Of a DNA stretch of 64,000 bases, positions 35,574 to 54,300 are shown one piece after another. The position numbers and the translations under genes were made by a program. The notes below the pieces were generated by a model. It was not told the DNA's origin. It did not search any database and saw only the letters and a list, made by a program, of their open reading frames with translations. Location of the stretch: positions 15,817-79,816 of the IMG/VR virus record IMGVR_UViG_3300046615_000768, one strand, 5' to 3'. Every line of letters begins with the position of its first letter. Position 1 is the first letter of the stretch. Origin of the DNA: a virus. Lineage: Duplodnaviria > Caudoviricetes.

Positions 35574-35595
35574 CCCGCGCCTGCGGGTTTTTTTT
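35574..35595 (+). terminator. Rho-independent terminator
   Basis: CCCGC-GCCT-GCGGG plus T8. Confidence 0.65.
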
Positions 35596-35645
35596 CGTCC
35601 GCAGTCTGCCCGCCATGTGCGGGCATTTTCTTTTGGAGAAACACC

Positions 35646-36468: not shown

Positions 36469-39400
36469 ATGACGACTTCCAACAAGTGGCGACTGCTGAT
36501 CACGGCGAACGCTGGCTATTCCGGCCAGCTGTGCATCGGCGACTGGCAGTTGCGCACGACTCCCGGCGTTGCCCGCCCGTTTGTCCAGCAGTCGATGACG
36601 GCTTCTGTGAACGACGGCGGCGCCGCGTCCCTGCTGGGCGCGGCCAGCCTTACCGAACACATCAGCACCTACACCACGGGCGACATGGTCGCCCTGACGC
36701 TGCCATTTAACATCAACGTCGGCGGCCTGGTGACGAACCAGGTCGTCGTCAACAGCTACGGCATGGTCTCGTTCGGCCATGACGGCACCTCCTACGGCTA
36801 CGAAGACTGGCTCGACGAGGGCAATGCGATCCCGTACCCGTTCATCGCGCACGGCATGGGGCAGGGCTATGGCGGCAGCGCCTTCCAGCACCTGTACGCC
36901 GGCGCCGAGAACAGCGGCAGCACCTACCGCATCCGCCTCGAAATGTTCGCCGGCTGGGAGGACCCGGGCGACGGCACCGTCAATACCGTCTGGGAAGTGA
37001 CGTTCGACTCGGCCCAGCCCGACCGCATGCGCATCGACTTCGGCACCAGCGGCTACGCCGCCATTACCGACGGCGGCGGCGTCATGGCGTGCGTCGGCGA
37101 TGGCGTCAACATTGCCCTGGTTGCGCAGTTCCCGAGCGTCGTCAACAAGCAGTACACCCTCATCACCGGCGAGATCCCGGCCGACGGCGTCGTCGCTGCC
37201 TCCTCGGCCGACTCGTTCAACCCGCCAAGCGGCGCGATTGACGGCGTGGACTACACGTCCTGGGTCGCCAACATGACGCCCTCCGTCGGCACGCCCGGCT
37301 GGATCGAATACACCTTCACTTCGCCGCAGACGATCGCCGAATACACCATCGCCGCGCCGTCTTCCTACTACAGCAACCCGCTCGACTCGCTCCCGAAGGA
37401 CTGGACGCTCCAGTATTGGGACGGCAGCGCGTGGCAGGTGCAGGACACGCAAACGAACCAGACCGGCTGGTCCTACGACCAGGTGCGCACCTTCGCGGCC
37501 CTCCCGCCCAGCAACGACGGCGACGTGCTGCTGCCCCTGATGTCGCTCAGCGCGATCATTGCCGCGCCCGACGCCATCATCGGCGACAACATGACGACGC
37601 AGCCGCTGTCGCTCAGCGGCACACTCGCGCGCGCCCACGACGGCCAGGTCAACCTCGGCAATCCCCTGAACCTCGGCCCGCTCTATAACGCCACCCCGTT
37701 CACGCTTGCGGCCGTCGGCGAACGCGGCGCGCTCCTCACTGGCGAAGCGACGTTCGAGGAACTGCTGCTCGAAGGCTCGCTGGAACCGGCGCTGCCCCTG
37801 CCGGGCCTGACGCTGGCCGCCCAAGGCGTCGCCGGCACGGTCGCCACGGCCAGCATCACCCTGTCGTTCCCATCGCTCGAAGCCGTCACCCTCGACCCGA
37901 TCACCCTGTCCGCGCTGGGCGTGGCCGCCACCGGCGTGGCCGGCACCGTCGGCACCGTCGCACTTGGCCTGCCGTACCTCGACGCCGCCGGCACCTTCCT
38001 CACCGGCACGGCCGCCGCGGGCGATGTGCGCGTCGGCCCGTTCGTCGTCGATGCCTCCTTCGGCACCGCCGGCGATATCTCCCTCGCACAGCTGGGTATT
38101 GCCGCCACCGCCGTGACCGGCACCGCAGCCGACGCCTCGATCCTCTTCAACCGCGCGACCCTCGACGCCTCCGGCCTGTCCGACCAGCTGCCAACCGCCG
38201 GCGAAGCGATCCTGCTGCCGCTGGACGCGGCCGGGACCATGCTCGCCGGCCAGATCGGCCAGGGCGCCGCCAACCTGCTCGCGCCGACACTGGCAGCGAT
38301 CGGGCAGGGCGATGCGGTCCTCGACGGCGCGCTCCTGTTCGATCCGCTGCTGCTGGCCGGTTCCGGCCTGGCGGGCCCGGTCGCCAACGGCGCACTGACG
38401 CTCTCGCCGTGGACTGTTGCCGCCACCGGCAGCGCGCCCCTGCCTGACAACAATGGCGCCGGCGCCGCGCTCTTCGGCACCCTGCAAGGCGCGGGCGTCC
38501 TGCTCGCCGGGCGAATCGCCGACGGTGCTGTCACGCTCGCGGCGCCGATCCTGCTGGCAACCCTCGTCGGCGACCAGATTGCCGACGGGGCACTGGCCCT
38601 GCGCGCGCCGAGCCTCGCCGCCACTGCCACCAACAACCCGGCCGGCGTGGCCCCGGGCGAAGCGAGCGGCGCGCTGTCCCTGCCGGATCTGACCCTTGCC
38701 GCGACCGCCACGACCGGCACGCTGGCCAGCGGCGACGGCCTGCTGCCGCGCCTGCAGGTCGACGCCGACCTGCTGGGCGAACGCATCGGCACCGGCGCCG
38801 TCGCTATGTCTGCCCTGCTGGCCGACGCCCGCATGGTCGAATCGGCCGCCGCACCCGCCACCGGCAGCGCAGCTTTCCCCGTCCTGCAAGCTGCGGCCGC
38901 CATGTTCGGCGACACCACGGCCGACGCCAGCCTGCCGCTGCCGCGCCTGGGCGTGTCTGGGACCATGCCGCCCGAACTGATCGGCGCCGCCAACGCAGCC
39001 CTGCCGGTCCTGCTGGTCGACGCGCGCATGATCGAATCGGCCGCCGCGCCTGCCAACGGCGCCGCGAACTGGTCCATCTGGCAGATCGCAGCCACCATGC
39101 ACGGCGGCACCATCGCCGACGGCAACCTGCCGTTGCCGCGCTTCGGCGTGCTTGGGACCATGCCGCCCGAGCTGATCGGCGACGCGAACTTGGCCCTGCC
39201 GGCCCTGCACCTGGCCGGCGCCCTGATCGAGAGCGCCGCCGCACCGGCCGACGCCGGAGCAACCCTGCCGGCCTTCCAGCTGGCCGCGACCCTGGCCGCC
39301 GGCGGCATGGTCGACGGCGCCGCGCTGCTGCGCGCGCCCGTCGTTGCCGCCGAAGCCTACGCCAGCACCGAGGCGAGCGCGGACCTGCGCCTGCCACAGC

Positions 39401-40212
39401 CGGGCCTTGCAGCCTTTGCCACGGCCGACAGTGTGACCCACGGCGCCGTGTCCCTGCGGCAGCTCGAAGCCGACGGCAACCTGACCGCCACCATCGAGGG
39501 CGCGGCGACACTGCGCCAACTCGACCTTGTCGCATTCGGCAACGCTGCCGCCGTCATCCATGGCGACGTGCAGCTGGTGGCGATCGAAACAAGCGCCGCC
39601 GCCGTGCCTGGCAACATCGCCATGGCGTCGATCACGGTCCCGCTGCTGCACGTCGACGCCGACGGCTACCTCGACACGGTCGGCACGGCCACCGTCGCGC
39701 TGCCGCTGTTGGCCATGGAGGGTGTGGGCATCGCCTCCGTGCCGGCGCCCGTGTTCACCGCCGTGGCCGTCAATACGCGCAACCAGGCCGCCACGACCTA
39801 CGAAGGGCTGGGCTTCAACAGCGTCACCAGCTTCAACGGCATGGTCCTGGCCGCCACTGCCGACGGCATCGTGGCCCTTGCCGGCGACACCGACCAGGGC
39901 GCGCCGATCGCGGCGATGCTCGCCTCGGGCGTGACCAGCATGGACAGCGAGCAGATGAAACGCGTCCTGTGCGGCTACGCCGGCTACAGCGCGACGGGCA
40001 ACCTTGAACTGACCCTGATCACCGATACCCACCACGAATACGTCTATGCGCTCGTGCCGGAACAGGTCGGCCAGCTGCACGCCGCGCGCGTGAAGTTCGG
40101 CCGCGGCGTTGAGGGCCGCTACTGGCAGTGGAAGCTGGCCAACAAGGCCGGCGCCCACTTCGCCCTGGACAAGCTGACGCTGGACGTATCCCCCCTGTCG
40201 AGACGTACATGA
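36469..40212 (+). CDS. Long tail fibre-like protein with discoidin (F5/8)-like domain and Ala/Leu repeats
   Basis: WI.Y.F..P.TI..Y.I...PKDW.LQYWDG.AW..D domain; about 20-25-aa ladder repeats; conserved C-terminus. Confidence 0.65.
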   Translation: MTTSNKWRLLITANAGYSGQLCIGDWQLRTTPGVARPFVQQSMTASVNDGGAASLLGAASLTEHISTYTTGDMVALTLPFNINVGGLVTNQVVVNSYGMVSFGHDGTSYGYEDWLDEGNAIPYPFIAHGMGQGYGGSAFQHLYAGAENSGSTYRIRLEMFAGWEDPGDGTVNTVWEVTFDSAQPDRMRIDFGTSGYAAITDGGGVMACVGDGVNIALVAQFPSVVNKQYTLITGEIPADGVVAASSADSFNPPSGAIDGVDYTSWVANMTPSVGTPGWIEYTFTSPQTIAEYTIAAPSSYYSNPLDSLPKDWTLQYWDGSAWQVQDTQTNQTGWSYDQVRTFAALPPSNDGDVLLPLMSLSAIIAAPDAIIGDNMTTQPLSLSGTLARAHDGQVNLGNPLNLGPLYNATPFTLAAVGERGALLTGEATFEELLLEGSLEPALPLPGLTLAAQGVAGTVATASITLSFPSLEAVTLDPITLSALGVAATGVAGTVGTVALGLPYLDAAGTFLTGTAAAGDVRVGPFVVDASFGTAGDISLAQLGIAATAVTGTAADASILFNRATLDASGLSDQLPTAGEAILLPLDAAGTMLAGQIGQGAANLLAPTLAAIGQGDAVLDGALLFDPLLLAGSGLAGPVANGALTLSPWTVAATGSAPLPDNNGAGAALFGTLQGAGVLLAGRIADGAVTLAAPILLATLVGDQIADGALALRAPSLAATATNNPAGVAPGEASGALSLPDLTLAATATTGTLASGDGLLPRLQVDADLLGERIGTGAVAMSALLADARMVESAAAPATGSAAFPVLQAAAAMFGDTTADASLPLPRLGVSGTMPPELIGAANAALPVLLVDARMIESAAAPANGAANWSIWQIAATMHGGTIADGNLPLPRFGVLGTMPPELIGDANLALPALHLAGALIESAAAPADAGATLPAFQLAATLAAGGMVDGAALLRAPVVAAEAYASTEASADLRLPQPGLAAFATADSVTHGAVSLRQLEADGNLTATIEGAATLRQLDLVAFGNAAAVIHGDVQLVAIETSAAAVPGNIAMASITVPLLHVDADGYLDTVGTATVALPLLAMEGVGIASVPAPVFTAVAVNTRNQAATTYEGLGFNSVTSFNGMVLAATADGIVALAGDTDQGAPIAAMLASGVTSMDSEQMKRVLCGYAGYSATGNLELTLITDTHHEYVYALVPEQVGQLHAARVKFGRGVEGRYWQWKLANKAGAHFALDKLTLDVSPLSRRT

Positions 40213-42206
40213 GCGACCGCAACGACGACGACCTGGTCTACAACGAGTCCATCGCCACCGGCCCGGTGCGCATGCAGCTCTACGGCGACGAAGCGCTCGC
40301 CGAGAGCCACATGCGCAACGCCCGCGCTGTGCTGGGCAAGATGAAGACGGCCTATGGCGTCAACGAACGCATGGCAGCCGGCGAACCCGGCGGCTACTTC
40401 CGCACCCAGCGCATCATGGCCGATGGCACCCGCATCGAAGCGTTCACAAACGATGGGCTCGACAGCGTGCGGATCACCGCGCCGGTCAAGCGCGAAGTCG
40501 TCGCGCCCATCCCCGAGCCACAGGGCGAATCGACCGACTTCACCCCGACGCCGGTTGACTTCGAGTACGAGCCCGAGTGGCCCGAGAAGAGCGAGAAGAA
40601 GGGCAAGCCGCCAGTGCTTGAATTCACGCCCTACCTCTGGATCGGCGTGCGCATCGTCTCGGGCAGCGACCCGCTGGAGTCCGACGAGATCAAGTACCCA
40701 CAGAAGTGGGCCCAGCAGCTGCATGTGTGCGTGTGGGAGCCCACGCCGCCGGATGAAGACCCCGTCATCCTCTCGAACCGCAACGACTTCGAGCCGCTCG
40801 TCACGCCCCCGCTCCAGCATCTGGAAGACAAAGAGGTCTATCCGCTCCAGCACTGGAAGCAGTTCATTCCGTCCGACTTCGAGGACCCGCGCAAGGAAGA
40901 ACGCGCCAACCAGGACTTCGACAAGCCGCTGCCGACGGCGATCGCCTACACCGACCGCAAGCTGGTCATGATCCAGCCGGACAACGTCTATGACGTGGAA
41001 ATGCGCGTGCCCAACTACGACCCAAGGCACGACCCGGACGTGAAGTGGGACATCATGTTCATTTCCGACCCGGACAACGACCTGAAGCTGGCCGACACGG
41101 CCGACCCGACCGTCACCATGGAAGCCGACTACAGCGGCGGCGAGTACCTGATCAAGGTCATGTGTGTCGGCCCCGACTGCCACCAGCTCGCTCCGGTCGA
41201 GGTGGAAATCATGATCATCATCGGCAAGGACCACGAAGAGATCCGGGACTCGAAGCGCTTCACGATCCAGGAGCACACGAACTACCGCATGGGCATCATG
41301 CCGCTGGGCTGGTTCAAGGAAAAGCAGCCGGCGCCGGATCACCCGTGCGACGAGTGCAACTACCGCGCCCAGGATTACGGACCCAACCCGCACGCCGACC
41401 ACTGGTGGCAGGGCATGGCCGTGGCCACCGTGCCGCCCATCCAGCGAGAAGTGTCCCAGGAGGAGTATTTCCCGCCCGTCATTTCGTTCAGCAAGGATGG
41501 CGTAGTCGAGTACCCCGAACCAGGCTTCTTCGAGCCGGCCGCCTTCCATGACCGCGCCGCGATCTGCCCCGGTTGCAACATCACCAGCGTGCGCTATTTC
41601 CAGGATGCGTTCCAGACCGCACAGATCTGGTGGGAGATGCAGCCCAACGATGCGTGCGACTACAACACGCACGTCCTCGGCGACTTTTTCGACTCGAAAC
41701 ACTATGTCACGGTCAAAAAGATCAACTACGAAGTCGGCGGCTCGAAGCCCTACGAGACGATGGACGGCTACACCTTCAGCATGCCGGAGGGTGGGGACGC
41801 CGCGCCGATTGTCGACGAATACACGTTCGCGTGGACGGACGGCATTGGCGGCCGCTGCGTCGGCAAGGACCACGACCCCTGGTATGCCGATGTCAACTAT
41901 ACCGAGCTGGGCGAGCTGCTGTTCAACGACACGGTGGCCTTCATCGCCAGGATGGAACAGCATTTCGGTGGTCCGCCGGAACGAACGATGGCCTATTCCA
42001 GCTGGACCATCACAACGGAAACCTACGCGAACGGGGATTCCAGCGGAGAAAGAAAGTCGTACATCAGCCTGGGCGAATTCATCGGCGGGCCGTTCAATGT
42101 GCACAACAACCCGGATGCAAAGGGTTACGACATTTGCAGCAAGAGCGAGCGCTGGACCTGGAGCGTGCTCGACATCGACAACCTCCCTCCAAATCATCAG
42201 AAGTAA
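40209..42206 (+). CDS. Hypothetical tail-associated protein
   Basis: ATGA overlap at 40209; typical codon usage. Confidence 0.6.
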   Translation: MSDRNDDDLVYNESIATGPVRMQLYGDEALAESHMRNARAVLGKMKTAYGVNERMAAGEPGGYFRTQRIMADGTRIEAFTNDGLDSVRITAPVKREVVAPIPEPQGESTDFTPTPVDFEYEPEWPEKSEKKGKPPVLEFTPYLWIGVRIVSGSDPLESDEIKYPQKWAQQLHVCVWEPTPPDEDPVILSNRNDFEPLVTPPLQHLEDKEVYPLQHWKQFIPSDFEDPRKEERANQDFDKPLPTAIAYTDRKLVMIQPDNVYDVEMRVPNYDPRHDPDVKWDIMFISDPDNDLKLADTADPTVTMEADYSGGEYLIKVMCVGPDCHQLAPVEVEIMIIIGKDHEEIRDSKRFTIQEHTNYRMGIMPLGWFKEKQPAPDHPCDECNYRAQDYGPNPHADHWWQGMAVATVPPIQREVSQEEYFPPVISFSKDGVVEYPEPGFFEPAAFHDRAAICPGCNITSVRYFQDAFQTAQIWWEMQPNDACDYNTHVLGDFFDSKHYVTVKKINYEVGGSKPYETMDGYTFSMPEGGDAAPIVDEYTFAWTDGIGGRCVGKDHDPWYADVNYTELGELLFNDTVAFIARMEQHFGGPPERTMAYSSWTITTETYANGDSSGERKSYISLGEFIGGPFNVHNNPDAKGYDICSKSERWTWSVLDIDNLPPNHQK

Positions 42207-42230: not shown

Positions 42231-45200
42231 ATGGCTGGACGTATCGGCGGCGGTTTTACGCCTGTAGGACCCGTCGCGCCTGCGACGGCGGCCGGCCCGG
42301 CACCCGGAGCCGATCCCGCGCGGCCGGCCGATCCCGCGCGGCCGGCCGATGCCGCGAAGCCGGCCGAACCCGCAACTGCGGTCGACCAGGCGCCCTGGAT
42401 CGAAGGACGTGCCACCGGCGTCGTCGAGGGCTACATGTCCAGCTCGCAGTCGCTGGCAGAGGAGGCTCACCGCGAAGCCATGAGGGCGATCACGGAGCTG
42501 GGCATGTTCCAGGCGAACCTGCCGTTCCTCGGCATGCCGAACATTCCGATCCCGGAGGTGCCGCTCGAACCGCTGGGCCAGGCCCCGGTCGAGCCGGATA
42601 ACCTGGTCGCGGCCTTCCCGAGCGCGCCGACCGCGCCGCAGATCGGCACGCTGCCAGCGATCGAGGTCGGCCCTGCGCCCGAGTTCAACGTCGCCACCCC
42701 GTTCCTGCTCGATATCCCGCTGCCGGACCCGCTCGCCGCCGTCCCGCCGACCGCGCCAGTGCTGACGCCCGTGCCGGTGCCGTCCGCGCTGACCGCCACC
42801 GTCCCGACCGCGCCGACCCTGGCCGACGTGCCCGCACCCGACGCCTTCACCGCCCAGGTGCCCGACAGCCCCGTCATCACCGCCCCGGACATGCCGACGC
42901 CGCTGTCGGCCAACCTGCCGGGCGCACCGAGCCTGTCGCAGCTGCAGGCACCGTCGAACCTGTCCGTCAGCGCGCCGGCCGCACCGCAGATCAACGTCGT
43001 GCCGGTCCCGGGCGCACTCGACGCGACCCTGCCGGCCGCCCCGACGCTGGCCGCGCTCGACGCGCCGTCGCCGCTGGCCAGCACGCTCCCGAGCGCGCCG
43101 CAGCGTAACGTCGTGCCGGTCCCGGGCGCCCTCGCCGCCGAAGCCCCGGGCGCGCTCACGCTCAACGAAGTGCCGGTGCCGGCGCCGCTCACGGCCACCG
43201 CGCCGCAAGCGCCGACCCTGAACGCGATCGTCGTGCCAGATCCACTGGCCGCGACCCTGCCATCCGTTCCAACGCTGTCCGAACTCGTCCAACCGAGTCC
43301 ACTCGACGCCCAGCTGCCAGTCGCCCCGGACCAGACCGCCGTCGCCGTGCCGCAGCCCTTGCAGGCAAGCGCGCCACTCGTGCCAAACCTGGTCGAGCCG
43401 GACCGCCCGGCGCCGCTGGCCGCCGTCCTGCCGCAGGCGCCGCAACTGACGCCGGTGGACGTGCCGGCCGCGTTCGACGCGAGTCTGCCGGGCCTGCCGG
43501 TCCTGAACGACCCGAGCGCACCGAGCCCGCTGGCCATCGACGCGCCGCTGCCGCCGCAGCTGTCGGCGATCGCCGCGCCGTCGTCGCTGGCCGTGAACCT
43601 GCCGGGCGCGCCCGTGCTCGACCAGTTCGCCGTCCCGGCCGCGCTGGCCGTCGACGCCCCGGCCGCTCCCGAGCTGGCCACGATCGCCGCGCCGGCACCG
43701 CTCAACGCCACGCTGCCGGGCGCGCCGACGCTGAGTCAGTTCGCCGTCCCGACGCCGTTCGACACCCCCGCCCCGGTCGCGCCGGAGCTGGCCGTCATCG
43801 CGGTGCCCGGTGCGATCACGACCGCGCTGCCGGACGCGCCGGTCCTCGACCAGTTCGCCGCGCCGGCCGCGCTCGCTCTTGACGCGCCGGTCGCGCCCGA
43901 GCTGGCCACGCCAGCCGTCCCGGCGCCGCTCGACGCCACCGTGCCAGGCGCGCCGACCCTGAGCCAGTTCGCGGTCCCGACGCCTTTTGACACCGCCGCC
44001 CCGGTCGCACCCGAGCTTTCCGTCATCGCCGTACCCGGCGCACTCACGACTGCGCTGCCGGACGCGCCGCTCTTGGCCGAGATCCCGGCGCCGTCGCCGT
44101 TCGACCTGGCCCCGCCCGAAGTGCCGCAGCTGGCGGCGATCGCCGTCCCCGCGCCGCTCGACGCGACCCTGCCGACGGCCCCCGTCGTCAACGAGATCGA
44201 GACCCCGGCGCCGCTCGACGCCGCGCTGCCGGCCGCGCCACAGCTGGCCGATGTCGTCCTGCCGCTCGAACCGGACTTCGTGTTCCCGAGCGTGCCGACC
44301 ATGGCCGGCCTGAACCTGCCGGACGTGCCGATCCTCGACCTGCCGCTCTACAACGACACCCTGCGCGCCGGCCCCGACGCGCCTGACACGAACTTCACCT
44401 GGGCCGAGGTCGAGTACAACACCACGCTGCTCGGCACAATGAACAGCCGCCTGGTCGAACTGGTCAACGGCGCGACCACCGGCCTCGATCCGGTCGTCGA
44501 GCAGGCCATCTGGAACCGCGGGCGCGACCGCCAGGCATTGATCACCCAGCGCGGCGTCGAGGAGGCAACGCGCCTGTTCGCCGGGCGCGGCTTCAAGATC
44601 CCGGGCGGCACGCTGGTGCGCATCGTGCAGCAGGCCGTGCAGGAAGGCATGAACGCCGACAGCGATCTCTCGCGCGACGTGATGATCAAACAGGCCGAAC
44701 TTGAACAGGCGAATTTCCAGTTTGCATTTAACCTGGCAATGCAGCTTGAGTCGCGTTTGATCGAACACTACAATTCTGTGCAGACTCGTTCGCTCGACGC
44801 CGCCAAGTTCACTGTCGCGTCCGCGATCGACCTCTTCAACGCACGCATTTCTCTCTTCCAGGCCGATGTGCAGGCCTTCTCGGCCAAGGCCGAAGTGTTC
44901 AAGACCAGGCTCCAGGCTGCGCTCGCGCAGCTGGATATCTATAAAGCAGAACTGGAAGGGCAGAAACTGATCGGTGAGATCAATTCCCAGGCCGTTGCCG
45001 TGTACACCGCGCAAATCGACGCGGTTAAATCCATGGCCGACGTGTACCGCACCCGTGTGGACGCGGTGAAGGTACGAATTGAGGCCGATGCTTCCAAAGT
45101 GGAAATGTACCGCGCCCAGCTGGCCGGGTTCGAGTCGCAGGTGCGCGCCAAGTCCTCCGAGTACGAGGGCTACGCCACCCGCGTAAAAGCCGAGCTGACG

Positions 45201-48200
45201 AAGGTGGAAATGTTCTCGGCCCAGCTGGCCGGCTACGACAGCCAGGTCAAGGCCAAGTCCTCCGAGTACGAGGGCTACAAACACCAGGTGGACGCGCAGA
45301 ACATCAAGGGCGACCTGTACAAGTCGCAGATGATGGGCTTCGATTCCATGGTGAAAGCCAAAGGCCAGGAATTCGAGAACTACGCCAACCTGTCCAGGAA
45401 CGAACTGAACAAGGTCGAAGCCTACCGGGCCGAGCTGCTCGGCTTCGATTCGGCGGTGAAAGCCAAGGGGCAGGAATACGCCAACTACGAAGCGCAGACG
45501 CGCGCCGAAGGCATCAAGGCCGATCTCTACCGCGCCGACGTGGCCGGCTTCGAGGCGCAGGTGCGGGCGAAGGGGCAGGAGTACGAGAATTACGCCAACC
45601 TGACCCGTGCCGAGCTGAACAAGGTGGAGGCCTTCCGTGCCGAACTGCTCGGGTTCGACTCCCTGGTCAAGGCCAAAGGGCAGGAATACACGAACTACGA
45701 GGCGCAGGCCCGTGCCGAGCTGACCAAGGTCGAGGCCTACCGCGCCGCGGTGTCCGCGTTCGAGGCGCAAGTGCGCGCCAAAGGGCAGGAATACGAGAAC
45801 TTCAACATTCTGTCCAAGACCGAGCTGAACAAGCTCGAAGTCTACCGTGCCGAACTGCTCGGGTACGACTCGGCGGTCAAGGCGAAGGGCCAGGAAGTGG
45901 CGACCTACGAGGCGCAAACCCGCGCCGAGTCCGTCAAGGCCGACCTGTACCGCGCCGACGTGGCCGGCTTCGAGGCGCAGGTCCGTGCGAAGGGCCAGGA
46001 GTACGAGAACTACGCCAACTTGTCGAAAAACGAACTGAACAAGATCGAGGCGTTCCGCGCCGAACTGCTCGGTTTCGATTCGCTGGTCAAGGCCAAGGGC
46101 CAGGAGTACCAGAACTATGAAGCGCAAACGCGCGCCGAGCTGACGAAAGTCGAGGCCTTCCGCGCTGCCGTGGCCGCGTTCGAGGCACAGGTCCGCGCCA
46201 AGGGACAGGAGTACGAGAATTTCAATATCCTGTCCAAGACCGAACTGAACAAGCTGGAGGTCTACCGCGCCGAGCTGCTGGGCGTCGATTCCGTCATCAA
46301 GGCGCACGGCCAGGAAGTGGCGAGCTACGAGGCGCAGACCCGCGCCGAGGGCGTCAAAGCCGACCTGTACCGGGCCGAAGTGGCCGGCTACGAGGCCACC
46401 GTGCGCGCCAAGGGACAGGAATACGAGAATTTTGCGACCCTGTCCAAGAACGAGCTGAACAAGGTCGAGGTGTTCCGCGCCGCGCTGCTCGGGTTCGATT
46501 CGCTCGTGAAAGCGAAAGGGCAGGAGTACCAGAACTACGAGGCGCAGGCGCGCGCCCAGGCCGTCAACGCCGACTTCTACCGGGCCGAGATCGCCGGCTT
46601 CGAGGCGCAGGTCGCGGCCAAGCGCGCCGAGTACGAGCACTACACCCAGCAGGCGACCGTGGACGCCCGCAAGGTCGACCTGTACCGGGCCGAGATTGCC
46701 GGCTTCGAGGCGCAGATCCGCGCCAAGGAATCGGAATACGCCGCCTATAAAGCGCAGGTCGACGCGCAGATGGTCATGGCCGAAATCTACAAGGCCAGCC
46801 TGGCCGGTTTCGACAGCCAGGTGCGCGCGAAGATCGCCGAGTTCGACAATTTTAAAACCCTCTCGCAGGTGCAGCTGAACATCGTCGAGGTCTACAAGGC
46901 CGAGCTGGTGGGTTACGAGGCGCAGGTCAAGGCGAAGGGCCAGGAATACCAGAACTACGAGGCGCAAACGCGGGCCGAAGGCATCAAGGCCGACCTGTTC
47001 CGCGCGGAAGTGGCCGGGTTCGATTCGCAGGTGGGCGCCAAGCGGGCCGAGTACGAAAATTACTCGCAGCAGGTGCGCGCCGAATTGAACAAGGTCGAGG
47101 CCTACCGCGCCATGCTGTCGGGCTTCGAGGCGCAGATCAAGGCCAAGGAGGTCGAGTTCAGCGGTTACGAGGCGCAGAACCGCGCGCAGACGGTCGACGC
47201 CGAGATTTACAAGGCGCAGATCAGCGGCTTCGACGCCGAAGTGCGCGCCAAGTCGGCCGAATACGAGCAGTTCGCCACCCTGTCGAAGACCCAGCTCAAC
47301 GAGATCGAGGTCTACCGCGCCCAGCTGCTCGGGTTCGACTCGCAGGTGAAAGCCAAGGGCCAGGAATACGGCAACTACGAGGCACAGGCACGGGCGGAAG
47401 CGGTCAAGGCCGATATCTACCGGGCCGAAATCGCCGGTTTCGAGGCGCAGGTGAAGGCCAAGAGCGCCGAGTTCGAGAACTTCGCCACCCTGACGCGCGC
47501 CGAGCTGAACAAGATCGAGGCCTTCAAGGCCGAACTGCTCGGTTTCGACAGCCAGGTCCGTGCCAAGGGGCAGGAATACGCGCACTACGAGGTCCAGTAC
47601 AAGGGCGAGGCCCTGAAAGCGGAAGTGTTCCGCAACCAGCTGGCCGGCTTCGAGACGATGGTGCGCGCCAAGGCCGCCGAGTACGAGGCCTACCGCTCGC
47701 GCATCCAGGCCGAACTGTCCAAGATCGAGGTCTACAAGGGCCAGCTGATGGGCTTCGAGGCCCAGGTCAAGGCGAAGGATTCCGAGTTCAGCAACTACGA
47801 ACAGCGCGTGCGCGCCGAACTGGTTCACTCGGAAATCTACCGCAACCAGCTGCTCGGCTTCGATTCTCTGGTCAAGGCCAAGGCGACCGAATACGAGGCC
47901 TACGGCACGCGCGTCAAAGCCGAGGCGATCAAGGTCGACATGTTCGGGCAGGAGGTTGGCGCGTTCAAGTCGCGCACCGACGCCTACGGCATGCTGGTCA
48001 ACGCCAAGCTCGGCCAGGCCAACCTGAACTTCAAGCAGAGCGCGGAATATCCGCTCGAAGTGTTCAAGAGCCAGGTGCAGGGCTACCAGTCCGGCGTGGC
48101 GGCCGAGGCCGAACGATTGCGCGCCAATGCCACGCTCTTCGATACGAGGGTGAAGGCCTACGCCGCGACCGAGAACACGCACAACGAACATACCCGTGCG

Positions 48201-48662
48201 GCCGTCGAGGTGGTCAAGGCCACGTCGGCAGTCTATACGAGCCAGGCGCAGCTCGCCCTGCAGGCCGGGGAGGCGAACCTGAAGATGGCGATGACGGCGG
48301 CCGAGACGGCGCAAGCATCCCTGCGCGCGGCCGGCCAGTTGTCCGGCCAGCTCGCCGCCGCGGCCCTGTCGGCACGCAGCGTTCACGCCTCGATCTCCGC
48401 GTCCGACTCGAACAGCGCCGTCAACAGCGCAAGCAACTCGGCGTCGAACTCGGCAAGCAATTCGAGCGTCAACAGCTCCAGCAACAGCAGCTCGAACAGC
48501 TCGGCGAACGCAGCGACGAACTCGTCCTCGAACAGCAGCAGCAACGCGTCGTCGAACTCGTCGAGCAACAGCTCGTCGAACGCGGGCGTCAACACGGCGA
48601 ACAACTCGTTCTCGCAGAGCTTGACCGACAACATCTCCGACATCACCACTCACCGGGAATAA
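42231..48662 (+). CDS. 2143-aa virion protein with paired repeat arrays
   Basis: GGAG RBS; 27 x 19-aa Pro-rich and 27 x 35-aa helical repeats; Ser/Asn tail. Confidence 0.85.
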   Translation: MAGRIGGGFTPVGPVAPATAAGPAPGADPARPADPARPADAAKPAEPATAVDQAPWIEGRATGVVEGYMSSSQSLAEEAHREAMRAITELGMFQANLPFLGMPNIPIPEVPLEPLGQAPVEPDNLVAAFPSAPTAPQIGTLPAIEVGPAPEFNVATPFLLDIPLPDPLAAVPPTAPVLTPVPVPSALTATVPTAPTLADVPAPDAFTAQVPDSPVITAPDMPTPLSANLPGAPSLSQLQAPSNLSVSAPAAPQINVVPVPGALDATLPAAPTLAALDAPSPLASTLPSAPQRNVVPVPGALAAEAPGALTLNEVPVPAPLTATAPQAPTLNAIVVPDPLAATLPSVPTLSELVQPSPLDAQLPVAPDQTAVAVPQPLQASAPLVPNLVEPDRPAPLAAVLPQAPQLTPVDVPAAFDASLPGLPVLNDPSAPSPLAIDAPLPPQLSAIAAPSSLAVNLPGAPVLDQFAVPAALAVDAPAAPELATIAAPAPLNATLPGAPTLSQFAVPTPFDTPAPVAPELAVIAVPGAITTALPDAPVLDQFAAPAALALDAPVAPELATPAVPAPLDATVPGAPTLSQFAVPTPFDTAAPVAPELSVIAVPGALTTALPDAPLLAEIPAPSPFDLAPPEVPQLAAIAVPAPLDATLPTAPVVNEIETPAPLDAALPAAPQLADVVLPLEPDFVFPSVPTMAGLNLPDVPILDLPLYNDTLRAGPDAPDTNFTWAEVEYNTTLLGTMNSRLVELVNGATTGLDPVVEQAIWNRGRDRQALITQRGVEEATRLFAGRGFKIPGGTLVRIVQQAVQEGMNADSDLSRDVMIKQAELEQANFQFAFNLAMQLESRLIEHYNSVQTRSLDAAKFTVASAIDLFNARISLFQADVQAFSAKAEVFKTRLQAALAQLDIYKAELEGQKLIGEINSQAVAVYTAQIDAVKSMADVYRTRVDAVKVRIEADASKVEMYRAQLAGFESQVRAKSSEYEGYATRVKAELTKVEMFSAQLAGYDSQVKAKSSEYEGYKHQVDAQNIKGDLYKSQMMGFDSMVKAKGQEFENYANLSRNELNKVEAYRAELLGFDSAVKAKGQEYANYEAQTRAEGIKADLYRADVAGFEAQVRAKGQEYENYANLTRAELNKVEAFRAELLGFDSLVKAKGQEYTNYEAQARAELTKVEAYRAAVSAFEAQVRAKGQEYENFNILSKTELNKLEVYRAELLGYDSAVKAKGQEVATYEAQTRAESVKADLYRADVAGFEAQVRAKGQEYENYANLSKNELNKIEAFRAELLGFDSLVKAKGQEYQNYEAQTRAELTKVEAFRAAVAAFEAQVRAKGQEYENFNILSKTELNKLEVYRAELLGVDSVIKAHGQEVASYEAQTRAEGVKADLYRAEVAGYEATVRAKGQEYENFATLSKNELNKVEVFRAALLGFDSLVKAKGQEYQNYEAQARAQAVNADFYRAEIAGFEAQVAAKRAEYEHYTQQATVDARKVDLYRAEIAGFEAQIRAKESEYAAYKAQVDAQMVMAEIYKASLAGFDSQVRAKIAEFDNFKTLSQVQLNIVEVYKAELVGYEAQVKAKGQEYQNYEAQTRAEGIKADLFRAEVAGFDSQVGAKRAEYENYSQQVRAELNKVEAYRAMLSGFEAQIKAKEVEFSGYEAQNRAQTVDAEIYKAQISGFDAEVRAKSAEYEQFATLSKTQLNEIEVYRAQLLGFDSQVKAKGQEYGNYEAQARAEAVKADIYRAEIAGFEAQVKAKSAEFENFATLTRAELNKIEAFKAELLGFDSQVRAKGQEYAHYEVQYKGEALKAEVFRNQLAGFETMVRAKAAEYEAYRSRIQAELSKIEVYKGQLMGFEAQVKAKDSEFSNYEQRVRAELVHSEIYRNQLLGFDSLVKAKATEYEAYGTRVKAEAIKVDMFGQEVGAFKSRTDAYGMLVNAKLGQANLNFKQSAEYPLEVFKSQVQGYQSGVAAEAERLRANATLFDTRVKAYAATENTHNEHTRAAVEVVKATSAVYTSQAQLALQAGEANLKMAMTAAETAQASLRAAGQLSGQLAAAALSARSVHASISASDSNSAVNSASNSASNSASNSSVNSSSNSSSNSSANAATNSSSNSSSNASSNSSSNSSSNAGVNTANNSFSQSLTDNISDITTHRE
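42723..44261 (+). repeat. 27 x 57-nt (19-aa, PxPLxAxLPxAPxLxxxxx) coding repeat
   Basis: Counted by hand, no indels (1539 nt). Confidence 0.9.
45126..47960 (+). repeat. 27 x 105-nt (35-aa, GF(D/E)xxV(K/R)AKxxEY...Yxxxxx) coding repeat
   Basis: Counted by hand, no indels (2835 nt). Confidence 0.9.
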
Positions 48663-48665
48663 ACC

Positions 48666-51332
48666 ATGGGCATTATCGAAGACGAATACAACCGGGCCAA
48701 CGGGCAGGGCCCGGCGCGCAATCCGGGTGTGCCGCTGCGCCCATCGGCGCCGCAGCCAGGCACCCCACCCGCACCGAACCCGACGGCCACGCACCCGCTG
48801 CGCGCCGCCGCGCCGGTGGGCGAGTCACTCGGCCAGACCGTGAACGGCCGCGCAGGCCCGCCGGCTCCGTCGCCGGTGCGCACTGCGATCGAAGGGCAGC
48901 CGGCCCCGAACCTGGGGCAAACCGTCGCCGAGCGCGTCCCGCAAGGCCCGCAGCTGCCACCGGAACAGCATCCATTGCGCACCGGCGCACCGGCCGGCCC
49001 GAACCTGGGGCAGACCGTGGCCGACCGTGCCGCGGGCAGCGTGCGCGCCGCCGCCCAGCAGGCGACTGCTGCACCGGGCAATGTGTTCGACAAGCTCAAC
49101 GCCGCCCAGCTGCGTTATGGCGACGGCACCCTGCCGAACCAGACCCTGGCCGAGACGATCAAGGGCCGTGTCCCGGCGCCGCCTTATAACGGTGCGCCAC
49201 CAGTGGCCGGCGCCCCGCCTGCGACCGCAGCTGCAGGCGGCGTCGGGGCGCCGCCACCAGGCACCCCGCCTGGCACCGCAGGCGGTCCCAGCTTCGCCAG
49301 CCGCGCCGGTAAAGCCATCGGCGACGCCGCGCGTGCGGCCATGCCGCAAGGCTCGGGCGCCGTCCTCGACGGCGGCACCGCGCTCGGCAAGGCGGTCGGC
49401 AGCGTGGCCAAGAAGGCCCTGCCATGGGTCGAGCCGGTGCACGAGGCGATCAACGTGGCGCGCGTGGCAAACGATCCGAAGGCCACCGCCGGCGACGTGG
49501 TCCAGCAGGCCGTCGAAGGCACCGGCCGCTGGGGCAGCACCGTGGGCGGCGCAACGCTCGGCGGCGCCGCCGGCGCATTGGTTGGTGGCCCGGCCGCACC
49601 CGCCACCGCCTTCATCGGTGGCGTGGCCGGTGGTATCGCCGGCTACATGGGTGGCGACGCAGCCGTCAACAAGCTGCGCAGCGTGTTCGGCCTCGGCGAC
49701 AAGAGCCCGATCGAGAAAACCGAGGAGCGCCGCCAGGCCGACGTGCGGGCGCAGGCGAAACTGCCGGCGATCTCGGAACCAGTCGTGCAGCCACCAAAGC
49801 TGCCAGGGGCCGCGCCGGCCACCATCGCGGCCGCCGCACCTGGCGCCGGTCCGGCGCGCACTGCGGCCGATACCCCCCAGCGCGGTGCGCCGACCGTCTC
49901 CCCGATCGCGCAGCAGCTGGCCGCGCTCCAGGCGCAGCAGGACGCCAGCCCGATCGCGCACACGACCATCGGCGGCGCCGGCAGCCAGGTGACTTACAAG
50001 GACGGCAGCATGAGCCCGCTGCTGCCGGGCCAGGCGATCCCGGACGACGTGGCTCAGTTCAACGCCTTGCACCAGCGCATGAACGCGCTGCGCAACGGCA
50101 CGCCGATGCCCGAGGATATGGGGGCACCGGCCGCGGCTGCTGGGCGCACCGTCCAGGCCTCGGCGCCGGCCAACATGCGCCCGGCGCAGCAGATGCTGCA
50201 CGCCGAAGCGGTCAATCAGGGCTACGACCCGATGCGCGCCATGATGATCAGCTCGATCGAGACTGGTGGCAAGTTCGACGCCGCGGCCAAGAACCCGAAA
50301 AGCTCCGCGTTCGGGCTTGTCCAGATGACGAAGGCCAACCGCGACAGCTACGGCCTGAGCCCGGAACAATGGGCCGATCCCGCGGTCCAGGCGCGCACCG
50401 GCATCGACTTCATGAAGAAGACGGACGCACAGCTGACCAATTCGCTCGGGCGCGCACCGACCCCGGCCGAGTCGTACATGGGGCACCTGTTCGGCCCGGC
50501 CGGCGCGACCAGCGTCCTGAGCGCCGACCCGAACCAGAAGATGCTCGACGTGGTGCGCTCGTATGACCCGAAGAACGCCAACGCCATCGTCAACAACAAC
50601 GGCTTCAAAGGCCTGACCGTCGGGCAGGCAGTGAACAAGCTGACCAAGATGACCGACGACCACATGAGCCGGATCAGCGGCGCCGGACAGCAGGGCGGCG
50701 GCCTGCTTGCCGCAGCGGCAACAGGCGTCGTCCCGCAGGTGGAAACCGGCGTGAACAACCCGGTGCACATCATCAAGGGCATGGCCCAAGGCATGGCCGT
50801 CCCGACCGCCTCCGGCTACGTCGAAATGCCGAAGGAGGTCTACGACGCCGCACGCCGCTCCCCGACCGGCTTTGCGCAGAACGGACTCGTGAACAACTAC
50901 CTCGACGGCCTCGCGCAGAACGCCGGTTTCCGCTCCAACCCGGTATCGGCCGAACTGGCCAAGGAAGCGGTGCGCGGCCAGTACCAGAACCAGGGGCAGG
51001 AGATCCAGGGCCGGTACGGGGTGCAGCAGCAGGGAATCTCCGCAGCGGGCCACCTGGCGGCCGCCGAGGTGGCAGCCAACGCCGACCACAACAAGATCAC
51101 CGTCATCGGCGGCGGCGATGCGATCGACCCGGTCACGAAGATGCCGATCAAGCAGCCGCAGCAAGGCGTCTACATGAAGGACGGCGTGCCGACCCCGGTC
51201 GAGCTGCCGAAGGCCAAGCCAAGCGAGCAGGAAGCACACGCGCAGGCGCGCGCTGCGATCGCCGGCAAGGCCAACAAGGACGAGGTCAACGCGCGTCTGG
51301 TGGCCAACGGCTACAAACCACTCCCCAACTAA
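48666..51332 (+). CDS. Internal virion/ejection protein with lytic transglycosylase (SLT-like) domain
   Basis: IETGGKFDAAAKNPKSSAFGLVQM ... Y..H.FG motif (about 50215-50640); Pro-rich N-terminus; glycine-zipper region. Confidence 0.8.
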   Translation: MGIIEDEYNRANGQGPARNPGVPLRPSAPQPGTPPAPNPTATHPLRAAAPVGESLGQTVNGRAGPPAPSPVRTAIEGQPAPNLGQTVAERVPQGPQLPPEQHPLRTGAPAGPNLGQTVADRAAGSVRAAAQQATAAPGNVFDKLNAAQLRYGDGTLPNQTLAETIKGRVPAPPYNGAPPVAGAPPATAAAGGVGAPPPGTPPGTAGGPSFASRAGKAIGDAARAAMPQGSGAVLDGGTALGKAVGSVAKKALPWVEPVHEAINVARVANDPKATAGDVVQQAVEGTGRWGSTVGGATLGGAAGALVGGPAAPATAFIGGVAGGIAGYMGGDAAVNKLRSVFGLGDKSPIEKTEERRQADVRAQAKLPAISEPVVQPPKLPGAAPATIAAAAPGAGPARTAADTPQRGAPTVSPIAQQLAALQAQQDASPIAHTTIGGAGSQVTYKDGSMSPLLPGQAIPDDVAQFNALHQRMNALRNGTPMPEDMGAPAAAAGRTVQASAPANMRPAQQMLHAEAVNQGYDPMRAMMISSIETGGKFDAAAKNPKSSAFGLVQMTKANRDSYGLSPEQWADPAVQARTGIDFMKKTDAQLTNSLGRAPTPAESYMGHLFGPAGATSVLSADPNQKMLDVVRSYDPKNANAIVNNNGFKGLTVGQAVNKLTKMTDDHMSRISGAGQQGGGLLAAAATGVVPQVETGVNNPVHIIKGMAQGMAVPTASGYVEMPKEVYDAARRSPTGFAQNGLVNNYLDGLAQNAGFRSNPVSAELAKEAVRGQYQNQGQEIQGRYGVQQQGISAAGHLAAAEVAANADHNKITVIGGGDAIDPVTKMPIKQPQQGVYMKDGVPTPVELPKAKPSEQEAHAQARAAIAGKANKDEVNARLVANGYKPLPN

Positions 51333-51343: not shown

Positions 51344-54300
51344 ATGAGCATGTTCGACGATCTGGTCCCGGGCAACAAGAAAACCGGCATGTTTGAAGAC
51401 CTTGTGCCGCCCGAGCCAAGCACGGCGAGCCAGGTCGCGCGCCGCATCCCTGACCTCGCCGTCACCGGCGTCAAGGCAGCGATCAGCGTGCCCGAGTCGA
51501 TCGTCGGCCTTGCCGATCTCGTCACCGGCGGCCGTGCAGGCAAGGCCGTCGAAGAGGCCGGTATCGGCTTCAAGCAGACCAAGGAAGGCCTCGACACGCT
51601 CTATTCGGACGCGCAGAAGCAGGCCAACGCCGAAGTGAACGAGGCCAAGGGGTTCGTCCCGACCGTCGGTGCGATGGTGCAAAACCCGTCCACCATCCTG
51701 CACGCCGCCATCGAATCGGTGCCGTCGATGTTCCTCGGCGGCGCGATCGGCCGTGGCGTCATGGCCGCGGCCGGCGCGAAAGCCGGCGCGGTCGCTGGCG
51801 ATGCCCTCGCCGAAGGCGCCGCTGCAGCCGTCCCGCGGATCGGCTCGACTGCCGCCGGTGCCATCGGTGAGGGCGTCGTCGCGGCAGGCCAGAACGCCGA
51901 GCAGATCCGCCAGCAGAACCCGGAGGGCGACCTGTCGCTGCGCCAGGCGGCCATCACCGCGCTGTCGGGCGCAGCCACGGGCGGGCTCAGCCTCGCCGGC
52001 GGTCGCATCGCCAACAAGCTCGGCATCGGCGACGTGGACACCATGATCACGGCCGGTCGCGCCGGCGCCGTCGGTGGCGAAGCCGTTGACGCGGCAGCAC
52101 GTGCTGCGGCCGAGGCTGCAGCCAAGAAGGGCGTGCTGCGCAAGATCGGCGAAGGCGCCGTGTCCGAGGGCGTGTTCGAGGAAATGCCGCAGTCGTACCA
52201 GGAACAGGTTGCGCAGAACCTGGCCACCGACAAGCCGTGGAACGAAGGCGCCGCCGAAGCGGCAGCGCAGGGCATGCTCGCTGGCGGCCTGATGGGCGGC
52301 GGCGGCAACGTGCTCGCCCACCTGGGCGAGAAGAAGGTCCAGACGAGCAATACCGACGACACCGCGCCCGCTGCCCCGCCAGCCGCCGCGCCCGTCGACC
52401 CGGCACCAGCCGGTCCGACGCTTCCCCCGGCCGGACCGATGGAGAAGGCCGCCTCGCTCGTGCCCCAGCCCGAAGGCGGGAACAAGGTCTTCCCGTTCGG
52501 CGACCTCGCCCTGGCGCAGAAGCAGGCCGATTCGCTGAGCCAGTCGACCGGCATGCCGCACGAAGCGGGCGATCATCCCACCGTGCCCGGCCGCTTCGCC
52601 GCGCAGCCAGTGGCGATCCGCGGCAGCGACCCGCTGTTTACGGCAGAAGCCGAACGGCAAGGCCTCGACCCAGCCATCGCCCAGCTGCTGACCCACGGCC
52701 CGCAGGCCCAGGAGCTGGTCAAGGCCGCCATGGAAGCGAACCCCGGCCTCGATCCGCAAGAGTGGCGCGACCCGGCCGTGCGCGCCCAGCTCGGCGCCGC
52801 CTACCTGAAACGCCAGGTCGGCGAACTCGAAAGCGCGCTGGAACGTCCGCCGACCCCGGCCGAGGCGTACATCGCCCAGCAGGTCGGCGTGCCGACGGCC
52901 GCCTCGATGCTCAATACGCCCGAGCCCGAGCGCGCGATCCCCGTCTCGACCCTCATTCCCGACCCTGCGCAGGAAGACCGTCTGGGCCTGACCGGCATGC
53001 CGATCGGCGCGGCCATCGACTTCCTGACCAAGCAGGCCGACCAGCTTCTCTCCACCTTCAAGGAGCAGGGCAATGCAAACCTGGACACCGGAGTTCAAGG
53101 CGCTGGATCAGGAGACGGTGGATCTCGTGCTGGAGCAGGAATGGGTGACAGCGCAGGAAATGCGGCTGTACCTGGCCAACCAGCTGCCGGAACCGGCGCT
53201 GACGCGGCTGCGCTGCCTGCTGCTGCTGGTAACGCTGGAAATGACCCCGGAAACGCCGGTCCAGTAGCCTCGCCGCGCGTCGTCGTCGGCCCGAGCGAAA
53301 CGGGCTTCCAGAACGTCAACGCCCAGCGTCACCGCGACAAGGCCGACGCACTCGGCGTCACCGGCGAGATCGAGCGCCTGTTCGGCGACGGGCTCACCAT
53401 CAACCAGGTCATGGGCCAGCTGCAGGACAAGGTGCCCGACGTGGGGCGGTCCGACCTGCCGAACTTCGTGAACGGCGTCCGGGCCTCCCTCGGCATCCCC
53501 AACCCGATCTCGCCGGAAGGCAAGGGCGCGTTCGACGCCTGGCGCGCGCAATATAAAGAGCGCCTGGCCAACCCGCCGGCGCCGTCGAACGCCGGCGCGG
53601 CCAAGGTCACGCCGGAATTCATCCAGCCGAAGAACGACATCGACCTGGCCGCGCACGACGCCAGCAATTCGCCGCTGAACGACCGCACGCCGGCCACCCC
53701 GGGCCAGCAGGACGCAAACAACTACAAGGTCGGCCGCACCGAGATCCACGGTCTGAAAATCGGCATCGAGAACCCGAAGGGTTCCACCCGCACCGGATTC
53801 GACCCGGACGGCAAGCCGTGGAGCACGCTGATGACGGGCCACTACGGCCGTTTTACGGGCACCAAGGGCGCCGACGGCGACGCCGTGGACACGTTCATTG
53901 GCGACAACCCCGAGAGCAACAAGGTGTTCGTGGTCGACCAGGTCGACCCGAAGACGGGCAAGTTCGACGAACACAAGGTGCTTTTGGGCGCGAACAGTCA
54001 GCAGGAAGCGTCCGAGCTGTACCACGACAACTACGCCCCGGGCTGGAAGGGCGCCGGCGCGATCACCGAAACCACGCCAGAGGTGCTGAAAACCTGGCTG
54101 AAACAGGGCGACACCACGGCGCCATTCGCCAAGGTGGCCGCACCGGCCGCGGCGCCGCAGGGCCCGCTGGAGGTCGCCAAGCCGGCGCCCGAGGAGACGA
54201 CAGCGGCCGCCAGCAAGGTACAGCAGGCGCCGTACTTCGAGGTCGACGGCCGCACCTACAAGGTCAACAGCGGCACGCAGGGCAAAGAGTCCGTCTGGGC

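Follow-up and report, generated by a model that had tools for sequence, protein, structure and literature searches.

In long-tailed phages such as siphophages and myophages, the classical determinant of tail length is a tape-measure protein in a tube of stacked rings. For lambda, deletion and duplication work on gpH reportedly established that the length of the tape measure sets that of the tail, at about 0.15 nm per residue, and that internal duplications give longer tails. The 2143-aa protein described here resembles tape-measure proteins of the lambda gpH type in being long, alpha-helical, and a proposed determinant of length. However, whereas a tape measure lies inside a tube built from a separate stacked-ring protein and exits at infection, our protein is proposed to be the wall of the tube itself. 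In the podophages N4 and DEV, the tail is lengthened by 12-fold alpha-helical tubes of gp54 and gp75, respectively (PMC13730344); these are single layered, whereas the gp37-type tube considered below is double layered. Neither the gp54 nor the gp75 chain was among our PDB sequence matches even at E = 1, and a Foldseek structure search also gave no match.

The only solved relative of the protein is gp37 of the Pseudomonas podophage A1002 (Kochitakasuvirus), whose structure was determined by cryo-EM in 2026 (PDB 44NX/26LA; PMC13730344); the F116-type members of the family are known from sequence and models. The PDB chain that we matched is the Kochitakasuvirus tube protein, since the chain fragment is identical to KPP25 ORF003. 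A1002 gp37 has 318 aa and no repeats, and it assembles as a 12-mer, in left-handed spirals, into a 24-nm tube whose lumen in the virion is about 40 Å wide. Each chain folds back: the N-terminal part (residues 4 to 105) forms a three-helix outer wall, residues 106 to 186 form the nozzle-dock domain, and the C-terminal helices (residues 187 to 305) form the inner DNA channel, with the N- and C-terminal parts running the same way from the dock. The A1002 needle is a protein separate from gp37 (PMC13730344).

The whole architecture of our protein is shared with the gp58-type proteins of F116-like Pseudomonas phages (Hollowayvirus) and their metagenomic relatives (phrog_10969), a family of about 2400 representatives whose function is unannotated, with the homologues of phages 8P and Epa33 annotated as structural. 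Base members have about 600 to 660 aa and a helical region fixed at 176 to 177 aa. Where tail lengths have been published, larger proteins go with longer tails over the range from 318 to about 630 aa: the tail is about 40 nm long with the gp37 of A1002 (PMC13730344), 66 nm in phiC725A, with a protein of about 630 aa (PMC5217972), and 72 nm in vB_SbaS_Y11, with a 623-aa homologue (PMC10846135).

In the window (the whole stretch of viral DNA that was analyzed, 64,000 nt), a single ORF on the plus strand (42231..48662) contains two long repeat arrays, and its product had no Pfam hit and only one strong PHROG hit, phrog_10969. The N-terminal head (aa 1 to 164; 42231..42722) carries an 18-nt repeat of 3.6 copies (42309-42373) and comprises the segment predicted to be helical in relatives (residues 25 to 55 in the AF2 model of the 665-aa relative P0008) and a nonrepeated Pro-rich lead-in. 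It is followed by a 513-aa Pro-rich array of 27 19-aa units (aa 165 to 677; 42723..44261), in which Pro1 and Pro9 are invariant and Pro12 is present in 26 of the 27; Pro makes up 21.8% of this array, only 2 of its 513 residues are basic, and its net charge is −38. A junction with two degenerate Pro units then leads into the conserved central domain (together aa 678 to 965; 44262..45125). Measured between the junction motif and the start of the 35-aa units (about aa 690 to 965), this region spans 275 to 279 aa family-wide and is nearly free of indels; in the window protein, AF2 models the domain with a pLDDT of 77 to 88. The second array, of 945 aa, consists of 27 35-aa units (aa 966 to 1910; 45126..47960) with Ala8 and Glu12 in all 27, Gly1 in 25, and Gly10 in 15. 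It contains no Pro, has a net charge of −21, and shows a hydrophobic periodicity that is strongest at 3.5 residues and continuous along the array, 35 residues being five heptads. A post-array helical domain (aa 1911 to 2050; 47961..48380), which is kept in base-size relatives, ends with an Ala-rich QLAAAALSA-type motif, and the ORF closes with a Ser/Asn-rich low-complexity tail and stop codon (48381..48662), a tail that varies from about 10 to 110 aa in the family. The first-pass annotation had counted 27 indel-free units in each array, and both the register, which is perfect in the two, and the edges bear this out: no internal unit falls below 0.30 (N array) or 0.41 (C array) against its unit profile, while every flanking 19- or 35-aa frame scores 0.22 or less. 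Because the edges are this sharp, the count of 27 is not arbitrary for either array.

Homology of the central domain to A1002 gp37 is seen both with phmmer (E = 1.2e-6) and with a profile of the family (E = 1.6e-16). An hhalign comparison pairs gp37 residues 78 to 204 with P0008 residues 193 to 315 (98.2% probability; E = 3.4e-14; 122 columns), a span of only some 120 residues in the nozzle-dock region; the N- and C-terminal parts correspond to those of gp37 by position and composition alone, and where gp37 has three helices in its outer wall the window protein has a Pro-rich array. Judged from the AF2 models of P0008 (a coil at residues 56 to 201 that reaches a pLDDT of 89, then a single long helix at residues 262 to 609) and of a window segment (N array pLDDT about 40; pTM 0.30), from composition, and from the gp37 sequence, gp37 and the window family appear to share a common order of parts, namely, an N-terminal helix, a Pro-containing extended chain, the dock, and long C-terminal helices, the last ending in both with an Ala-rich motif. 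The fold-back of the chain proposed in the first-pass annotation is supported by this homology to a solved structure (PMC13730344).

P0008 is the closest normal-size relative and has, between the same flanking motifs, a single 19-aa unit and a single 35-aa unit, the base form of F116-like gp58-type proteins, whereas both counts are 27 in the window protein. Relative to this 1:1 base, the window protein has gained 26 units in each array; indeed, its C helical measure is 1087 aa versus 177 aa in P0008, a difference of 910 aa, or 26 × 35. It is the longest member that we found, the next longest relatives having 1290 to 1449 aa and super-units of 55 and 103 aa. When the two regions were compared across homologues, the outcome was the one predicted by the first-pass annotation, in that the two arrays expand together. 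In each of the 17 C-expanded members, the lengthened helical region is accompanied by a lengthened Pro-rich region; independent tree contrasts agree in 7 of 7 cases with curated coding (P = 0.016), and with raw coding 6 to 7 independent pairs go in the same direction and none in the opposite one. The lengths before and after the central domain are tightly correlated (r = 0.97 to 0.98), and about 1.85 C residues are gained per N residue, which is 35/19. Matched N/C gains are +55/+103 and +165/+309 aa, both occurring as matched indels within clades, and +494/+910 aa. Additional expanded homologues obey the same rule. A count that goes against it comes from the closest relative, P0007, in which 9 N units accompany only about 7.7 C units that are readable across a frameshift in a contig of 4× coverage.

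The best explanation of these data, and probably the correct one, is that the window protein is a tail-tube subunit, vastly extended, of a virus of podophage type. By analogy with A1002 gp37, the conserved central domain would attach some 12 copies to the nozzle, with every chain traversing the tail twice: the C-terminal heptad-periodic helix would form the inner, acidic DNA channel, and the N-terminal Pro-rich chain would go back outside it as the outer wall. Since the chain would fold back from the dock, its N and C termini would meet at the distal tip, which is where the N-terminal head is expected. Tube length would be set by chain length, because each chain would span the entire tube, and one 19-aa outer segment would have to be gained per 35-aa helical segment, because the two layers must stay equal in length. 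If the C-terminal helix is continuous and straight and the N units pack directly on it, each unit pair would add about 5 nm, and the 26 extra pairs would make the tube about 136 nm longer than the 66- to 72-nm base-size tails, giving a tail of about 200 nm without a tape-measure protein. The array rod of about 140 nm suggested by the first-pass annotation is reasonable in this light (27 × 35 × 0.15 nm). As for its length ruler, the protein is best read as a tube that is its own ruler and not as a separate one. The fuller proposal, in which about 12 full-length chains build a podophage tail of siphophage length, some 200 nm, the matched numbers of 19-aa and 35-aa units specify that length digitally in steps of about 5 nm, and the 1:1 rule holds across the F116-like supergroup (about 2400 representative proteins), is one that we put forward more tentatively.

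Were it true, the rule would be unlike that of the tape measure, as each chain would reach from one end of the tail to the other and its two layers would grow in step. It would also provide a tail-tube function for a large unannotated family, including that of the transducing phage F116, and account for the small-siphophage appearance of some phages whose tail genes are of podophage type. With some 5 nm for each unit pair, tail length would become readable from metagenomic sequence and open to engineering in laboratory phages, and the gene would offer a neat example from nature of two separated repeat arrays that are constrained to co-expand.

The gene lies in a conserved tail module, all on the plus strand. 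Upstream are a near-full-length homologue (397 aa; 34339..35532) of the A1002 nozzle-base protein gp42 (chain 26fb_K; E = 2.4e-15), which is of the tubular tail B type, as is H66_0054 (PMC4819975, Table 2); a putative fibre protein, so assigned from KPP25 gene order (284 aa; 35562..36416), with two stretches that match the 147-aa A1002 chain 44nx_B; a nozzle-rope homologue (1247 aa; 36469..40212) whose residues 1057 to 1246 match the nozzle part of A1002 gp39 and whose middle is an Ala/Gly/Leu/Thr-rich quasi-repeat region; and a 692-aa ORF (40128..42206) that is syntenic with KPP25 ORF004 and whose start is uncertain because of an 85-nt overlap with the upstream gene. The order from nozzle base to the 2143-aa protein matches KPP25 ORF008 to ORF003, and the synteny extends to the H66, Manatee Spring podovirus, P0002, and P0003 loci. 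Downstream follow an 888-aa protein (48666..51332) with a lytic-transglycosylase-like domain (about aa 494 to 675), probably an ejected or cell-wall-piercing protein, and a giant polyvalent, DarB-like virion protein (51344..64000) of more than 4218 aa, with InPase, DUF6884, and methyltransferase domains, which extends past the window and has as its counterpart the IVP-D homologue H66 gp60 (PMC4819975). F116-like gp58-type genes show the same synteny with these two. A tape-measure identity for the 2143-aa protein was considered and rejected, its neighbors being podophage nozzle, fibre, and ejection proteins and no family match being found; the first-pass annotation was right to suppose a phage without a classical tape measure, as the tail module is podophage type. 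Among the proteins scanned, none matched tape-measure, tube-ring, or sheath families save for one weak hit, a short stretch of a tape-measure PHROG inside the portal protein.

This gene order admits another, in our view unlikely, reading, that of an internal virion (ejection) protein like T7 gp15, packed in the head and released at infection as a long trans-envelope conduit. The position directly upstream of the transglycosylase-bearing protein and the giant IVP-D counterpart (PMC4819975) would suit such a protein, as would the strong alpha-helix content. Two observations count against a tube: H66 gp58 is absent from the proteins confirmed by mass spectrometry in the H66 record, which would also fit ejection, and the nozzle-rope homologue does not vary in length with the putative tube protein across loci. 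However, the sole solved relative is an external tail tube of the mature virion (PMC13730344), base-size phages have thin, rigid tails of 66 to 72 nm that fit the helix length (PMC5217972; PMC10846135), and T7-type internal virion proteins (gp15, IVP-C type) gave no match in Pfam, PHROGs, or PDB sequences. In place of the extensible ejection conduit that had been envisaged, the tail tube would be a fixed DNA conduit; nothing suggests extensibility.

About equally improbable is a tube subunit whose 35-aa units are kinked at their two glycines (Gly1 and Gly10) into a zig-zag or short hairpins; the rise would then be well under 5 nm per unit and the tail much shorter than 200 nm. The models leave room for such a helix, as AF2 confidence in P0008 drops exactly at the start of the 35-aa unit (residues 434 to 445) and the window segment has irregular helix breaks near some Gly-containing unit starts; moreover, the nozzle-rope homologue has a rope-like middle of just some 680 aa. 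Nevertheless, the same window-segment model also predicts helices of 72 to 77 residues that cross unit borders, and both the uninterrupted 3.5-residue period and the complete lack of Pro argue for a straight helix. So do the known tail lengths, which fit 0.15 nm per residue (PMC13730344; PMC5217972; PMC10846135), and the pairing of 19 extended with 35 helical residues.

We consider it very unlikely that the protein is a central needle or fibre, i.e., a coiled-coil rod without a lumen that the conserved domain anchors in the nozzle, the Pro-rich part being a flexible surface brush. Fibres often show heptad periodicity and Pro-rich low-complexity regions, and the Ser/Asn-rich tip could touch the cell surface. 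Yet a brush needs no length match, whereas the lengths of the two regions change together in constant proportion, and the homologous domain of gp37 is part of a tube in a phage whose needle is another protein (PMC13730344).

To return to the repeats themselves, both arrays also carry period-4 duplications, seen as TRF periods of 228 and 420 nt. In the N array, amino acid identity at lag 4 is 58% for units 16/20, 79% for 17/21, 89% for both 18/22 and 19/23, and 68% for 20/24, against a background of about 42%; in the C array, it is 86% for 4/8, 89% for 5/9 and 6/10, 100% for 7/11, 80% for 8/12 and 9/13, and 69% for 10/14. These identities confirm the four antiparallel mirror pairs of the first-pass annotation, of which the N16~N20 pair is weak (65% DNA identity), and add a fifth that it had missed (N20~N24 with C8~C4). 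The C block is two units longer than the N block, and the proximal block edges are an exact mirror (N24 with C4). Correlation of the similarity matrices is higher in the mirror orientation (r = 0.13 to 0.31) than in the parallel one (0 to 0.13). Chance, whether as independent drift of the arrays or as assembly-inflated counts, is a highly improbable source of the equal counts and mirrored duplications, for although the block position alone would arise about 1 time in 18, the mirror correlation lacks a sharp zero-shift peak, and no contig piece among the matches listed bridges the whole C array, co-expansion at a constant ratio has occurred in at least seven independent lineages, the gain over the 1:1 base is exactly +26/+26, the units have diverged to 54 to 86% DNA identity, and, in the rhizosphere metagenome run in which the stretch is present, probably its source sample, depth is flat and a single 1636-nt contig covers the entire N array with zero differences.

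The 2143-aa product of the single ORF at 42231-48662 (+ strand) is most likely the tail tube itself, measuring its own length, and an extreme new form of a recently described podophage tail tube. A PDB sequence search matched one entry family (26LA/44NX, "Structural protein," 318 aa), whose chain corresponds to tail-tube protein gp37 in a cryo-EM study of podophage A1002 (PMC13730344); a fragment of this chain is identical to KPP25 ORF003. The profile of the window protein's family matched the gp37 chain with an E value of 1.6e-16, and hhalign aligned the two at 98.2% probability, with sequence homology confined to the dock region. In A1002, twelve gp37 copies build a double-layered tube 240 Å high, whose outer wall comprises residues 4-105; docking on the nozzle is through the two antiparallel helices of residues 106-186, and residues 187-305 make up a regular inner channel with helices in left-handed spirals and an acidic lumen of ~40 Å (PMC13730344). 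At its start the gp37 sequence has a helix and then an extended stretch that contains Pro; this is the family layout in miniature. A literature search found no solved structure of an F116-like tail.

If the window protein is folded as gp37 is, its N-terminal chain and C-terminal helix would fold back to lie side by side from nozzle to tip, so that lengthening of one layer must be matched in the other; this matched lengthening is the pattern seen in the family. The first-pass annotation had likewise inferred a chain that folds back on itself, and the solved relative and the family co-expansion both support it. It had also proposed a length ruler or an extensible ejection conduit; the tube itself is now the preferred reading of the function.

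The gene lies on a phage genome recovered as a single 79.8-kb contig with 65% GC. The stretch was found in one rhizosphere metagenome run only, which is probably its source sample and adds no independent support, and a Megablast search of phages with 40-50 kb of the window gave no match. A head of 164 aa is followed by the N array (aa 165-677; 27 Pro-rich units of 19 aa), two degenerate Pro units with the conserved, nonrepeated central domain (aa 678-965), the C array (aa 966-1910; 27 helical units of 35 aa), a helical end domain of 140 aa, and a low-complexity, Ser/Asn-rich C-terminal tail (48381-48605) with 24- and 36-nt repeats, whose expected place is the tube's distal tip. Across the family this tail varies from ~10 to ~110 aa independently of the helical region. 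At the extreme N terminus, an 18-nt tandem repeat (x3.6; 42309-42373) encodes a Pro/Ala/Arg/Asp hexapeptide and is absent from base-size relatives.

Both arrays are real, each with 27 units free of indels and with sharp edges: units inside the arrays reach at least 0.30 (N) and at least 0.41 (C) against the unit profile, versus at most 0.22 for the flanking frames. Pro1 and Pro9 are present in 27/27 N units, and Ala8 and Glu12 in 27/27 C units. Pro makes up 22% of the N array, which is nearly without basic residues; the C array lacks proline and has a net negative charge and a dominant hydrophobic period of 3.5, and its 35-aa unit equals five heptads, which favors left-handed supercoiling. Period-2 and period-4 higher-order periodicity is found in both arrays. 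The period-4 duplications had been reported to map antiparallel, N unit i to C unit 28-i, and the four pairs named at that time hold, although N16~N20 is weak; a further pair, N20~N24, had been overlooked. Amino acid identity at lag 4 is 58, 79, 89, 89, and 68% from N16/20 to N20/24 and 86, 89, 89, 100, 80, 80, and 69% from C4/8 to C10/14. Under this mapping the proximal edges of the two blocks coincide (N24 with C4), the C block exceeds the N block by two units, and the DNA identity of the duplicated copies is alike in both arrays (79-86% in N, 81-86% in C). Because mirror placement of the blocks is by itself a ~1-in-18 event, and because matrix comparison favored the mirror over the parallel orientation without a sharp optimum, the mirror pattern is suggestive but short of proof.

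Homologues bear on the claim that the two arrays expand together. The central domain matches phrog_10969 and phage proteins, including those of F116-like Pseudomonas phages, and an exhaustive search gave a family of 2374 representative proteins, 150 of which were listed and form the basis of our measurements. Among the members listed, the usual length is 600-660 aa, and in most the helical region, from the center as far as a conserved motif at the C-terminal end, has a constant length of 176-177 aa. More than 100 base-size members have a central domain of 275-279 aa and a helical region of 176-177 aa, almost completely free of indels, an unusually strict length constraint given a mean identity of only ~27%. 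P0008, the nearest base-size relative among the members listed (54% identity in the central domain), shares the flanking motifs of the window protein but has exactly one 19-aa and one 35-aa unit, which makes the window protein the base form +26/+26; the helical measure differs accordingly (1087 - 177 = 910 = 26 x 35).

The length before the central domain correlates with that after it, with an r of 0.97 (145 complete representatives), or 0.98 with refined anchors (128 representatives). An HMM anchor on the N-terminal helix proved too weak in a third of the sequences, so the N side was compared by its total length and by pairwise alignment. Expanded members, found in separate clades with base-size relatives around them, give rise to the correlation. 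In pairwise alignments of family members, the N and C gains were +55 and +103 aa (P0026 versus P0022, and again P0003 versus P0002), +165 and +309 aa (P0002 versus P0026), +52 and +100 aa (P0073 and P0082 versus P0074), +65 and +100 aa (P0063 versus P0113), +48 and +107 aa (P0148 versus P0097), and about +95 and +240 aa (P0110 versus P0056); the window protein exceeds P0008 by +494 and +910 aa by unit count. Across comparisons the ratio of C gain to N gain is near 1.85, or 35/19. In the P0002 clade, the super-units of 55 aa (N) and 103 aa (C) each consist of three subunits of ~18-19 and ~34-35 aa, respectively. Different lineages have thus duplicated blocks that differ in size, with N and C numbers matched every time. 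All C-expanded proteins among the members listed are also N expanded (17/17), and in an independent-pair test with curated coding the changes ran in the same direction in 7/7 pairs (p = 0.016); with raw coding, 6-7 ran the same way and none opposite. The rule also fits nine further long homologues, and this 1:1 pairing of N and C units appears to be previously undescribed.

Several apparent exceptions were set aside. The extra N residues of P0010, P0089, and a 773-aa class precede the N-terminal helix, the extra C residues of P0015-17 and P0105 are a Ser/Asn/Thr-rich tail beside a base-size helical part, and P0013 is a frameshifted read-through. The closest relative among the members listed, P0007 (67% identity; L004:236-3372, on a short 3.7-kb metagenome contig with 4x coverage), is alone among close relatives in having an N array of intermediate size, with 9 N units against ~7.7 readable C units, and a frameshift exactly at a 35-aa unit junction splits its gene, reflecting either repeat collapse or a real pseudogene.

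Published tail lengths agree with ~0.15 nm per helical residue. The tail is ~40 nm with the 318-aa tube protein (PMC13730344), and F116-like phiC725A has a thin, nonflexible, noncontractile tail of 66 nm (PMC5217972). vB_SbaS_Y11, a Shewanella phage with a 72-nm tail, has been called siphoviral (PMC10846135); this phage (OQ927986.1) encodes a 623-aa base-size tube-family homologue, annotated as a Rho GEF, and the label may reflect the helical tube of this family. At the same rise, 910 additional helical residues would add ~136 nm, for a predicted tail near 200 nm. In an AF2 model of P0008, residues 56-201 are coil, in part at pLDDT 80-89, and residues 262-609 are a single helix; Foldseek of this model against the PDB (to April 2026, without 44NX) gave nothing beyond spurious matches to long helices, with E of 0.6 or worse. 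For a window segment (N19-N27, center, and C1-C9), the arrays were of low confidence (pTM of 0.30). AF2 confidence dips at the two glycines of each 35-aa unit, so the helices may kink there and the tube may be shorter.

The A1002-type tail homologues of the window stand in KPP25 gene order, with terminase, portal, capsid, and adaptor-side genes upstream and a transglycosylase protein and a giant polyvalent protein downstream of the tube gene; the layout agrees with those of H66, Manatee Spring podovirus, and the P0002 and P0003 contigs. For the large-terminase ORF (19497-20819), the match is limited to the C-terminal part of the family profile, and the major-capsid match covers only a 258-aa ORF (28988-29764). 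The tail genes include a homologue of the nozzle base gp42 (34339-35532; E = 2.4e-15) and what is most likely a 284-aa fiber protein (35562-36416), which matches the 147-aa chain of the A1002 tube entry (44nx_B; E = 1.9e-19) in two stretches and looks like a tandem duplication of the fiber-dimer domain, possibly a covalent pseudodimer. The nozzle-rope homologue (36469-40212), whose C terminus matches the nozzle part of gp39 (E = 5.8e-12), is twice as long as its A1002 counterpart (1247 versus 620 aa). Nozzle-rope length does not track tube length, being 600-623 aa beside tubes of 1290-1449 aa and 865 aa beside a 631-aa tube. The N-terminal part of the homologue is Ig-like or lectin-like, and quasi-repeats rich in Ala, Gly, Leu, and Thr span ~680 aa, among them a 195-nt repeat (x2.5; 38812-39318); these quasi-repeats might supply many more fiber-docking sites.
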